Below, piece by piece: positions 1,888 through 29,004 of a DNA stretch of 29,004 nt. The notes under the pieces are model-generated. The model saw only the letters and a list, made by a program, of their open reading frames with translations. It was not told the origin of the DNA and did not search any database. The stretch comes from a virus (taxonomy: Duplodnaviria > Heunggongvirae > Uroviricota > Caudoviricetes), in the IMG/VR virus record IMGVR_UViG_643348547_000007. One strand, given 5' to 3'. The position numbers and the translations under genes are program-made. Position 1 is the first letter of the stretch. Each line of letters starts with the position of its first letter.

Positions 1888-2001
1888 ATGAACAGCATAC
1901 TGATAATCACTTCGCTCCTTATCATATTCAGCATTTTTAGTCATGCTCTAATAAAATTAGGGATTGGCATATCCAATAACCCAGACAAAACCGATGTATA
2001 A
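1888..2001 (+). CDS. Candidate small hydrophobic protein (37 aa, [37 protein letters not shown]), single predicted TM helix
   Basis: ATG at 1888 preceded by GAGG 4 nt upstream; uninterrupted 37-codon frame to TAA at 1999-2001; strongly hydrophobic core. Below the 60-aa cutoff of the supplied ORF track. Confidence 0.35.
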
Positions 2002-2069
2002 GTCAACATATCCTGAATCAGACATACAATATCGCAATGAAAATCAATAATATTTTAAGGAATATATTC

Positions 2070-2303
2070 ATGAAATCAAAAGACACCCTAAAGTGGTTCC
2101 CTGCGCAGCTTCCTGAAGTCAGAATTATCCTAGGGGATGCTGTAGTGGAAGTAGCAAAACAGGGAAGACCTATCAATACCAGAACATTGCTTGATTACAT
2201 TGAAGGAAACATAAAGAAAAAATCATGGCTGGATAACAAAGAATTATTACAAACAGCGATATCAGTTCTTAAAGACAACCAAAATTTAAATGGTAAAATG
2301 TAA
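2070..2303 (+). CDS. ydfK: Prophage cold-shock-type small protein (YdfK/YnaE family), 77 aa from the internal ATG
   Basis: ORF 2037-2303; likely true start is ATG 2070 (MKSKDTLKWF...) preceded by AAGGA; sequence matches the YdfK/YnaE prophage family from memory. Confidence 0.7.
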   Translation: MKSKDTLKWFPAQLPEVRIILGDAVVEVAKQGRPINTRTLLDYIEGNIKKKSWLDNKELLQTAISVLKDNQNLNGKM

Positions 2304-2619: not shown

Positions 2620-2982
2620 ATGTCTCGAATTTTTGCTTACTGTCGGATATCAACGCTGGATCAGACCACCGAAAATCAACGCCGGGAAATCGAAAGTGCA
2701 GGTTTTAAAATCAAACCTCAGCAAATAATCGAAGAACACATTAGCGGCTCAGCAGCAACCAGTGAGCGTCCTGGTTTTAACCGGTTGCTTGCTCGCCTGA
2801 AATGTGGTGATCAATTGATTGTGACAAAACTGGATCGCCTTGGTTGTAATGCAATGGATATCAGGAAAACAGTGGAACAACTGACCGAAACAGGTATCAG
2901 AGTGCATTGCTTAGCATTGGGGGGCATTGACCTGACCAGTCCAACAGGAAAAATGATGATGCAAGTAATTTCAGCAGTCTGA
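2620..2982 (+). pseudogene. pin: Serine recombinase / DNA invertase (Pin/Gin/Hin family), truncated after codon 120 by IS629; the TGA stop is supplied by the first 3 bases of the IS
   Basis: N-terminal resolvase catalytic domain ([15 protein letters not shown]..., catalytic Ser in the RIST motif). Full-length invertases are about 190 aa; the C-terminal HTH is absent. The ORF ends exactly at the IS629 inverted repeat (2980). Confidence 0.85.
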
Positions 2983-3021
2983 ACCGCCCCGGGTTTCCTG
3001 GAGAGTGTTTTATCTGTGAAC

Positions 3022-3912
3022 TCAGGCTGCCAGATCATCGTTTCCGATGGAAGCATAATAAGCTTTTTCTGCTTCTGCCGGAGGAGTATGGCCCAGCCTT
3101 TCCAGCAATCGTCGATTGTTATACCAGTCCACCCACGTGAGTGTGGCCAGTTCCACTTCTGCACGGTTTTTCCAGCTCTTACGGTGTATTACCTCCGCTT
3201 TGTAAAGACCATTGATGCTCTCCGCCATCGCGTTGTCATACGAGTCGCCTGTACTTCCTGTTGATGCCAGTAATCCGGCTTCCTTAAGCCGCTGTGTGTA
3301 GGCCAGCGATACATACTGAGAACCTTTATCACTGTGATGGACCGTGCCGGACGGTCGACGGGCCCATAACGCCTGCTCCAGTGCATCCAGCACGAATGTC
3401 GTTTCCATGGACGATGAGACCCGCCACCCCACGATGTATCCGGCAAACACATCAATGATGAACGCCACATAGACGAAGCCCCGCCATGTGCTGACGTAAG
3501 TAAAATCAGCCACCCACAGCTGGTCAGGTCGTTCTGCCACGAACTGACGGTTTACGCGGTCGCCTGCGGCAACGGCTTTCCGGCTGATGGTCGTACGGAC
3601 CTTTTTACCCCGGAGAACACCGGCAAGTCCCATAACCGCCATGAGACGTGCCACAGTGCATCTGGCCACTCTGATACCTTCCCGTAACAACTGACGCCAG
3701 ACTTTACGCACACCGTATACCTTGTGATTTTCATCGTATACGCGCTGTATCTCTTTCTTCAGCCAGTCATCGCGCTGCGCACGGGCACTGCGTTTATCCG
3801 GATGATGTCGCTGTTGCTGACAGTGGTAATACGTTGACGGGGCAATATGCAGTTCGCTGCATAGCGGTCCGACCCCGTACTGCTCACGCAGCTTATCCAG
3901 CAGTGGCATCAT
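3022..3912 (-). CDS. IS629 OrfB (DDE transposase catalytic part, normally made as an OrfAB frameshift fusion), 296 aa
   Basis: ORF overlaps the orfA end in the -1 frame, as is typical of the IS3 family; DDE-type integrase-core sequence. Confidence 0.9.
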
Positions 3913-4235
3913 TTTTTCCAGAGGCGGTCGAACTCCGCCTTCGCAAAATAAGCGGAAGCCTGGCGAAGGATATCGTTACTGCGGCGCAGTTCACGATTTT
4001 CACGTTCCAGCTCTTTCAGACGCTGACGTTCAGCGGTGGTGAGCCCTCCATCACCGCCCCCGGTATCCCGCTCATGCTGGCGAACCCAGACACGCAGAGT
4101 CTCCGGCGTACAGCCAATCTTTGGAGCAATGGAACAAATTGTCGCCCATTGTGAGTCATATTCGCTCTGACTTTCCAGAACCATACGGACTGCCCGTTGA
4201 CGGACTTCGGGGGAAAAACGAGTATTTTTAGTCAT
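3909..4235 (-). CDS. IS629 OrfA (transposase N-terminal, HTH/leucine-zipper part), 108 aa
   Basis: [21 protein letters not shown]... translation; identical ORF present in the second IS copy at 28199-28525. Confidence 0.9.
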
Positions 4236-4240
4236 CCTGT

Positions 4241-4894
4241 TTACCTCTTTCTCAGGAAGTTTAGTCTCCAGGATTCCCGGGGCGGTTCAACCAGACGTTC
4301 GTACATTACACCTTCGGCAACAAGGCCATTGCTGGAAATAGCTTCAGGAGCATCATTCTCGTTAGCTGGTCGCCAGTGAACAAACTGAGGGGCAATTTCT
4401 CCTACTTCCTCGGCAATCAATCCATAGAATCCCCAATCGCGCCTGTCATTTTCGCATTGCGACCTGTACCACACAGGGCGCATCCTGAAAATGAGATCGG
4501 CGTGCTCCGAATCTATCGTCTCTACTGAATGTTTATAGCGGATAGACGATGTGGACCGCAGTACAGACGAAATTGCGGGGTCAGGATTAAGATAAAGGTT
4601 TGCCGCCGCTGTAGTCGTGCCCAATCCCCACAAATAAAACGCTTCACGACCAGTCAGCGGGTAAAAATCTCCACCATAACGACCACTTTCCAGATCGTTC
4701 ACTTCCACTTTGTTTTTCAGCTTATTATCAACTTCAGTTTTTGTGTATCTGGTGCTGATATCCTGCTTTGCACTGGTCATATCAGTCTGAAGCGTTGATA
4801 CTTTTCCGTTAATTGAGGAAATATCTTCCTTGGCTTTACTGACATCTCCCTTTAACGTGGTGATGTCTCCTGGAATTACTGTCGATGTAGCCAT
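4241..4894 (-). pseudogene. Tail-fibre-associated protein with a coiled-coil N-terminus, 3'-truncated by IS629 (native part 4290-4894; last 16 codons are read from IS sequence)
   Basis: Own start with a GAGGGAGA Shine-Dalgarno before ATG 4894; Ser/Thr/Lys-rich heptad-like N-terminus; the ORF runs across the IS629 boundary at 4289/4290. The C-terminal region is loosely reminiscent of fibre intramolecular-chaperone domains (tentative). Confidence 0.55.
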
Positions 4895-28198: not shown

Positions 28199-28525
28199 AT
28201 GACTAAAAATACTCGTTTTTCCCCCGAAGTCCGTCAACGGGCAGTCCGTATGGTTCTGGAAAGTCAGAGCGAATATGACTCACAATGGGCGACAATTTGT
28301 TCCATTGCTCCAAAGATTGGCTGTACGCCGGAGACTCTGCGTGTCTGGGTTCGCCAGCATGAGCGGGATACCGGGGGCGGTGATGGAGGGCTCACCACCG
28401 CTGAACGTCAGCGTCTGAAAGAGCTGGAACGTGAAAATCGTGAACTGCGCCGCAGTAACGATATCCTTCGCCAGGCTTCCGCTTATTTTGCGAAGGCGGA
28501 GTTCGACCGCCTCTGGAAAAAATGA
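28199..28525 (+). CDS. IS629 OrfA (second copy), 108 aa
   Basis: Translation identical to the copy at 3909-4235. Confidence 0.9.
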
Positions 28526-28939
28526 TGCCACTGCTGGATAAGCTGCGTGAGCAGTACGGGGTCGGACCGCTATGCAGCGAACTGCATATTGCCCCGTCAA
28601 CGTATTACCACTGTCAGCAACAGCGACATCATCCGGATAAACGCAGTGCCCGTGCGCAGCGCGATGACTGGCTGAAGAAAGAGATACAGCGCGTATACGA
28701 TGAAAATCACAAGGTATACGGTGTGCGTAAAGTCTGGCGTCAGTTGTTACGGGAAGGTATCAGAGTGGCCAGATGCACTGTGGCACGTCTCATGGCGGTT
28801 ATGGGACTTGCCGGTGTTCTCCGGGGTAAAAAGGTCCGTACGACCATCAGCCGGAAAGCCGTTGCCGCAGGCGACCGCGTAAACCGTCAGTTCGTGGCAG
28901 AACGACCTGACCAGCTGTGGGTGGCTGATTTTACTTACG
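28522..28939 (+). pseudogene. IS629 OrfB, 3'-truncated or interrupted after about 139 codons
   Basis: Identical to copy 1 OrfB up to ...QLWVADFTY, then unrelated sequence (GVPGVQGGHGCLNEPRVCLEY) to the window end. Confidence 0.8.
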
Positions 28940-29004
28940 GTGTGCCCGGAGTTCAGGGCGGGCATGGATGCTTAAATGAACCGCGAGTCTGTCTGGAATA
29001 TTGA

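Follow-up and report, generated by a model that had tools for sequence, protein, structure and literature searches.

A 37-codon frame upstream of ydfK at a prophage end is ynfT, a YnaM/YnfT family gene for a small protein with one predicted helix

Does a 37-codon reading frame in AT-rich DNA beside the cold shock gene ydfK, at one end of an Escherichia coli prophage, encode a genuine small membrane protein, and what might such a protein do? The question is raised by the window analyzed here, that is, the whole 29,004-nucleotide stretch of Caudoviricetes DNA held as IMG/VR record IMGVR_UViG_643348547_000007, in which a first-pass annotation had picked out an "unlisted" frame for a single-helix hydrophobic peptide. 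With high confidence the frame can be named ynfT: it is the Qin-type member of the YnaM/YnfT small-protein genes, which lambdoid and other temperate phages of enterobacteria carry, and it encodes a peptide with one predicted helix. This confidence extends to what the gene is, to its being coding and to the single helix of the product; the mechanism proposed below, with YdfK as partner, lies outside it. The gene is already annotated and its product has been detected experimentally, and the frame of the window is thus a rediscovery. The features of the frame are as follows.

1888-2001, + strand: ynfT coding sequence (CDS), 37 codons and a TAA stop; small protein of the YnaM/YnfT family with a predicted single transmembrane (TM) helix
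1880-1883, + strand: Shine-Dalgarno sequence GAGG of ynfT, 4 nucleotides before the ATG

The start codon (ATG, 1888-1890) and the stop codon (TAA, 1999-2001) were read from the sequence and from the list of open reading frames (ORFs), and both the ATG frame with its GAGG and the hydrophobic stretch quoted in the first-pass annotation proved to be right. The GAGG is invariant in a three-way DNA alignment of E. coli, phage 2H10 and Salmonella phage 118970_sal3. The product is matched over residues 1-37 of 37 by the Pfam model PF23676 "Protein YnaM-like" (E-value 6.5e-28, 96.2 bits, cutoff 27) and also by the NCBIfam model NF041477 "YnaM/YnfT family protein" (score 63.9 bits, cutoff 35) and by PHROG 35882, which carries no assigned function. 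The same 37-residue sequence is found in WP_120795384.1, in K-12 YnfT (b4748) and in K-12 YnaM (b4744). In K-12 the ynfT gene lies in the Qin prophage at 1632890-1633003, between ydfJ and ydfK, and its twin ynaM lies in the Rac prophage at 1434293-1434406, where it adjoins ynaE. At the DNA level the window carries the K-12 ynaM allele, with three synonymous third-position differences from K-12 ynfT.

The gene order of the window, which is truncated ydfJ, ynfT, ydfK and pin, agrees with this identity, and the order ynfT, ydfK/ynaE, pin is also present in K-12 Qin, K-12 Rac and the phages Tritos and 2H10. The region 1600-2320 (721 nucleotides) was found at full length by megablast in 2789 of 5426 complete E. 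coli genomes. Annotation was inspected in 30 evenly spaced matching records, one of which held only a 15% fragment, and a "YnaM/YnfT family protein" CDS was annotated under the match in all 29 full-length records. The description of the frame as unlisted does not hold, as the gene is already carried as ynfT in RefSeq and in records derived from EcoCyc: the complete genome closest to the window, CE10 (O7:K1), lists it as CE10_RS30080, and it is b4748 in K-12 MG1655. There is a clash of names in the literature, where the coordinates 1632890-1633003 are called ynfQ in Table 1 of VanOrsdel et al. 2018 and ynfT in NC_000913.3; the y-ome paper lists ynfT and ynfQ both in Qin.

The frame lies in a spacer of 785 nucleotides (31% A and 32% T) between ydfJ and ydfK, on the inner side of the prophage end and about 610 nucleotides from it, with 68 nucleotides separating it from ydfK. 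First-order Markov simulation of 785 nucleotides put the expected number of ATG ORFs with 37 codons or more at about 1.95 per spacer, counting two strands, and the length of the ynfT ORF by itself is within chance expectation. When a Shine-Dalgarno sequence and a hydrophobic window of TM grade were added, the expectation fell to 0.0017 ORFs per spacer. The maximum Kyte-Doolittle mean of YnfT over 19 residues is 2.52, and AlphaFold2 predicted one helix over residues 2-30 (predicted local distance difference test score, pLDDT, 88.7), long enough to span the bilayer, followed by a less ordered tail.

The ynfT of the window differs from its counterpart in Salmonella phage 118970_sal3 at 21 sites, and third positions account for 13 of these. 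By the Nei-Gojobori method the same pair has 13 synonymous and 8 non-synonymous changes, a split with a binomial p of 1e-4, and the rates per synonymous site (dS) and non-synonymous site (dN) are 0.92 and 0.099, giving a dN/dS of 0.107. Over the same pair the dN/dS of ydfK is 0.079, and ynfT is comparably constrained. Both alternative frames are stop-rich in the two species compared. Within E. coli the polymorphic sites of the ynfT alleles fall at third positions in six cases and at a first position in one. An intact frame was found in 70 of 70 proviral loci of IMG/VR holding the region, of which 69 were parsed by script; in the remaining one (L120) a synonymous change hid the anchor, and the frame was followed from the start as printed. 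The protein is identical in 68 of the 69 parsed copies, the other having H19Y, and the rest of the polymorphism is at third positions. These alignments indicate that the YnfT sequence is under purifying selection and support a functional peptide, and the conservation and codon-level selection proposed as checks in the first-pass annotation are thereby borne out, with the frame kept across relatives.

The peptide itself has been detected. VanOrsdel et al. 2018 tagged 80 small ORFs with the sequential peptide affinity (SPA) tag on the MG1655 chromosome, and both K-12 loci appear in their Table 1, which gives the small proteins that they detected, with the exact peptide sequence of the window (PMC6001520). 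Both were also unannotated positives in the tetracycline ribosome-profiling screen (PMC6001520). A peptide identical to the YnfT of the window is therefore made from K-12 chromosomal loci during ordinary growth, and the epitope tagging proposed as a further check already existed. Weaver et al. (bioRxiv 10.1101/511675) observed YnaM-SPA at a level above that of the majority of small proteins newly found. In one RNA sequencing study ynfT mRNA went up alongside the helicase genes deaD and rhlE (PMC13058169). A full-text literature search by peptide sequence recovered only VanOrsdel et al. 2018. Taken with the family models and the purifying selection, the tagging in K-12 upholds the proposal of a genuine gene for a single-helix small membrane protein at the prophage end, the membrane location being predicted.

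The surroundings of ynfT bear on its expression and on its possible partner, and consist of the following features.

1-1284, - strand: ydfJ, gene of a major facilitator superfamily (MFS) transporter, 5'-truncated by prophage insertion (from the ORF list and RefSeq of matching loci)
1836-1866, + strand: upstream block GATAAAAA-TGTCAA ... TATAAC/CATAAT, shared by the E. coli and Salmonella-phage copies, candidate promoter region (three-way DNA alignment)
2002-2069, + strand: ynfT-ydfK spacer of 68 nucleotides, holding the ydfK ribosome-binding site AGGA at 2058-2061
2070-2303, + strand: ydfK, cold shock protein of 77 residues and conserved cassette partner, with a predicted YmgB/AriR-like fold

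Isolated temperate phages, among them Tritos, mEp460, 2H10 and HannyBb, carry in order int, the phage attachment (attP) region, ynfT, ydfK, pin and tail-fiber genes, and this order places ynfT-ydfK at one end of the prophage after integration. By DNA search the pair was found between attP/int and pin in 11 isolated E. coli phages, in several of whose records the 37-codon frame is left unannotated. The DNA search was used since tblastn of YnfT against phages aligned only residues 23-37, the helix being masked by the low-complexity filter. A baseplate-bearing Salmonella phage also carries ynfT-ydfK between int and the tail-fiber genes. Between the E. coli and Salmonella phages the conserved segment extends only from about 50 nucleotides upstream of ynfT through the end of ydfK.

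The conserved hexamers TTGTCA and TATAAC of the upstream block are 11 nucleotides apart, which is a non-canonical spacing. Genomic SELEX (systematic evolution of ligands by exponential enrichment) has reported binding of the RpoD holoenzyme in the ydfI/ydfK and ynaE/uspF spacers (PMC3946193), and the hexamers given there for ydfK and ynaE (TTCCCA-16-GATAAT and CTGACA-17-TACCAT) are absent from the spacer of the window. A terminator scan found no terminator-like hairpin within 2002-2069, and this, together with the ribosome-binding site of ydfK in the same spacer, fits co-transcription of ynfT and ydfK, which may well share a transcript. The motifs AACATxTCCTGAAT and AATATTTTRAGGAA of this spacer are conserved in the Salmonella copy, and the region of the ydfK ribosome-binding site is kept. 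An RNA thermosensor or leader structure over ynfT was considered and dropped, as the fold of 1870-2100 was no more stable than that of shuffles (z +0.55). Rfam gave no RNA family in 1-2600, and its only matches in the window were two IS3 ALIL pseudoknots.

Some further observations concern the prophage itself. The prophage boundary lies at about 1276-1284, and the Qin feature of K-12 begins 8 nucleotides inside the ydfJ CDS; RefSeq words the gene in the matching loci as [quoted passage not shown]. Many IMG/VR proviruses among the collected loci L072-L139 begin, like the window, about 2069 nucleotides upstream of ydfK, and the left edge of the window is probably a provirus-boundary call which took in about 1.28 kb of host ydfJ. 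The pin gene is interrupted past its codon 120 by an insertion sequence (IS) of the IS3 family on the - strand at about 2983-4240 (window 2620-4240), with an ALIL frameshift pseudoknot at 3838-3954. Compared with CE10, about 865 nucleotides next to the IS are gone (the 3' half of pin, a tfa remnant and a 294-nucleotide gene), which looks like an IS-adjacent deletion fusing the IS end to the tail-fiber-domain ORF at 4241-4894. A second copy of the same element lies in the opposite orientation at 28199-29004, with a pseudoknot at 28480-28596, and continues past the end of the window; the two copies flank most of the structural genes of the prophage. In contigs from metagenome-assembled genomes labeled Caldithrix, Alistipes and Draconibacterium (L008, L010, L013) ynfT and ydfK are 100% identical to those of E. 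coli, and these contigs are most simply explained as E. coli prophage contigs that were mis-binned.

The predicted fold of YdfK matches the solved structure of YmgB. By sequence YdfK stands outside YcgZ_fam (15.9 bits against a cutoff of 80), and a profile search of PDB sequences gave nothing relevant for YdfK, while the PDB sequence search with YnfT was likewise empty. YdfK is drastically up-regulated at low temperature (cited in PMC10654059), and proteins of the AriR family have been reported to activate the Rcs phosphorelay via the membrane kinase RcsC (PMC11451591). Some phage records start ydfK at an upstream ATG (window 2037-2303; L007:3338-3604), giving 88 residues, and in Tritos this longer form is annotated as a "predicted DNA-binding transcriptional regulator". 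The Salmonella copy lacks the upstream ATG, in favor of the 77-residue start at 2070.

The wider family was approached through YdfK. Only four YnfT-related clusters were present among 1.84 billion representative proteins, a scarcity that is probably due in part to 37-codon genes seldom being called. An alignment of YdfK was therefore used to gather 63 loci across Enterobacterales, in which short ORFs for hydrophobic peptides were then sought. Peptides of 37-43 residues encoded on the same strand, with a helix and an acidic tail bearing SNNxD, adjoin YdfK-like genes in six loci, and no peptide matching the helix and SNNxD was found in the remaining loci of the 63 scanned. The six loci and the additional YdfK-like genes in two of them are these.

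L019 and L068: YnfT-like peptide loci of Pantoea
L049: YnfT-like peptide locus of an uncultured genome
L058 and L059: YnfT-like peptide loci of Raoultella
L064: YnfT-like peptide locus of Superficieibacter
L058:2970-3206 (Raoultella) and L064:3082-3372 (Superficieibacter): second, highly diverged YdfK-like paralogue beside the first

Residues A20, S29, N30, N31 and D33 are invariant over seven peptides of 29-78% identity, and the diverged YnfT-like peptides are at 29-50% identity. Against PF23676 three of the diverged peptides reach E-values of 1e-3 to 2e-4, and those of Raoultella and Superficieibacter score 19-22 bits, below the cutoff; those of the Pantoea type do not match the model, and their membership is by shared motif and synteny alone. 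In Raoultella (L058, L059) the order is reversed, with the peptide gene downstream of the second YdfK-like gene; in L058 it lies at 3240-3359, 34 nucleotides after the paralogue. This reversed order speaks against the peptide being purely a leader, and in favor of both products being linked in function. The commonest YdfK homologues, which make up most of those collected, are chromosomal and about 62% identical. An LpxP-like gene lies at most 2.5 kb from the chromosomal homologue in 26 loci, as listed below, and the only copy tested, L030:708-1616 on the - strand, is an LpxP palmitoleoyltransferase by its score (535.7 bits against a cutoff of 517).

L020, L022, L026-L046, L051, L052 and L054: lpxP-linked YdfK loci, in Enterobacter, Klebsiella, Raoultella, Leclercia, Citrobacter, Pantoea and Brenneria

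What might YnfT do? In the reading that we prefer, YnfT, built of one hydrophobic helix (about residues 2-30) and, after it, a brief polar tail with the invariant SNNxD motif, would insert as a single-pass inner-membrane protein. YnfT and YdfK would be produced from one transcript, as a "moron" cassette at the prophage end expressed in the lysogen, and YnfT might then bind a larger membrane protein together with YdfK, a small helical protein of predicted AriR/YmgB-like fold; for example, it could recruit YdfK to a membrane sensor or modulate that sensor. It is possible, though some way short of probable, that a membrane protein of the host is the joint target of YnfT and YdfK. A more specific version, in which the two form a two-component prophage module of membrane peptide and AriR-like cytosolic connector that reprograms a host envelope sensor (e.g. 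the Rcs kinase) in the cold, with the SNNxD tail as contact site and the chromosomal lpxP-linked YdfK as the ancestral, peptide-independent form, is speculative and rather unlikely to be right in full.

A number of facts weigh against the preferred reading of a YnfT-YdfK partnership or against the standing of ynfT as a working gene. No YnfT-like peptide lies near the chromosomal YdfK homologues of about 62% identity, and proteins of the YdfK family can thus do without one. Near ynfT no sigma-70 promoter of a convincing kind was found, and a consensus scan stayed at chance level (no more than shuffles). Ribosome profiling, also named as a check in the first-pass annotation, divides: the tetracycline screen is positive, but Weaver et al. 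(bioRxiv 10.1101/511675), using retapamulin or Onc112, saw no start-codon density for YnaM. The K-12 ynfT and ynaM genes are identical from 52 nucleotides upstream of the ATG through nucleotide 23 of the ORF, so that initiation footprints would map to both loci, and we infer that this multi-mapping accounts for the absent peak. The 2024 y-ome survey still ranks ynfT as uncharacterized (PMC11551758), and no report on function, partner, fractionation or topology of YnfT/YnaM was found in the literature searched. Decayed copies of ynfT also exist, as given below, and show that the gene is dispensable in some cryptic prophages.

L065:2319-2428: decayed ynfT, frameshifted, in the second prophage of E. 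coli ECGI0523
L069:2276-2384: decayed ynfT, disrupted, in Shigella flexneri

The same evidence may be read in other ways. YnfT could be a stand-alone membrane factor of benefit to the phage, acting, for example, in superinfection exclusion or in modification of a host transporter or receptor, with the adjacency of ydfK reflecting only moron architecture. Prophages are known to encode small inner-membrane proteins that keep the DNA of incoming phages out, ynfT sits at the prophage end beside tail-fiber and invertase genes in active temperate phages, and YdfK homologues without the peptide exist; ynfT is also expressed in lysogens in normal growth (PMC6001520). We consider this reading improbable, as no PADLOC defense model matches, PHROG 35882 offers no function, and the adjacency of peptide and YdfK is kept at 29-50% identity and in the reversed order of Raoultella, which is beyond what hitch-hiking would be expected to give. 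Another reading, which we hold to be very unlikely, makes YnfT a peptide resembling a type I toxin or a holin, which damages or depolarizes the inner membrane and is restrained by an antisense RNA. Such a role would suit a short, hydrophobic, prophage-borne peptide, and there is a weak NCBIfam match to the type I toxin PepG1 (E-value 0.055, 13.1 bits) and one promoter-like site on the opposite strand at 2079-2052; however, the PepG1 score is far under its cutoff of 70 bits and is due to hydrophobic composition, and the structure of the mRNA region is ordinary by the z-score given above. No Rfam family was found in 1-2600, promoter-like sites were at shuffle level and no minus-strand terminator was present, a result limited in that a novel antisense RNA could escape an analysis of sequence only. 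The tagged protein is moreover readily detectable both in growth and in stationary phase, which is not so for type I toxins under tight repression, although a C-terminal tag could mask toxicity.

Two readings would deny the peptide a function of its own. As cold-shock mRNAs often have long regulatory leaders, the frame might be a regulatory upstream ORF or leader peptide that tunes ydfK, its product being functionless. The position 68 nucleotides upstream of ydfK with no terminator between, and the strong cold induction of ydfK (cited in PMC10654059), would fit this; it is nevertheless a highly improbable account, since the amino acid sequence of YnfT is as constrained as that of YdfK (dN/dS 0.107 against 0.079), the SNNxD tail persists at 29-50% peptide identity, both Raoultella loci have the peptide gene downstream of the one for the YdfK-like protein, and the tagged peptide is stable enough for detection. 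The frame might lastly be a chance ORF of AT-rich DNA, in which a spacer of this size and composition should hold about two ATG ORFs with 37 codons or more, and in which T-rich sequence favors codons for hydrophobic residues. The probability of this is negligible: a Shine-Dalgarno sequence with a TM-grade window is expected at 0.0017 per spacer, substitutions are dominated by third positions, the other frames are stop-rich, curated models match and the protein itself has been observed. The chance reading is already refuted by how the sequence is conserved and by published immunoblots.

As a gene call the analysis adds nothing, with ynfT present in RefSeq and the K-12 reference and its product seen on immunoblots. 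The remaining interest lies in the function of YnfT/YnaM and in the linkage of YnfT with the AriR-like YdfK. The quantitative estimate of purifying selection, the diverged family with helix and SNNxD, and the linkage to YdfK-like genes together with the AriR/YmgB-like predicted fold of YdfK were not found in the literature searched. Selection, family and linkage together provide a concrete and testable hypothesis for two y-genes which are present in about half of complete E. coli genomes.

Among known systems, K-12 YnfT/YnaM is like the window in its protein and in its position, from the prophage end to ydfK/ynaE-pin, and the DNA of the window is the K-12 ynaM allele; the gene itself shows no substantial difference. 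The prophage of the window is a full-length lambdoid one with head and tail genes and an IS3 element in pin, whereas K-12 Qin and Rac are defective remnants. With the type I toxins (Hok, Ldr, TisB, PepG1) YnfT shares a short hydrophobic sequence and, as is often the case for them, a prophage setting, but it differs from them in its PepG1 score (13.1 against 70 bits), in that the sequence scans showed no sign of an antisense RNA and in being visible in growing cells. YdfK recalls the connectors of ycgZ-ymgA-ariR(ymgB) while falling far below the YcgZ cutoff (15.9 against 80 bits); to our knowledge the ycgZ operon has no YnfT-like membrane peptide. The AcrZ, MgtS, MgrB and PmrR class has no sequence relation to YnfT, which is prophage-borne and not a core gene. 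Its members are nevertheless built like YnfT, with fewer than 50 residues, one hydrophobic helix and a short polar tail; they were found by tagging of small ORFs, and from them comes the mode of action expected for YnfT, binding to a larger membrane protein.
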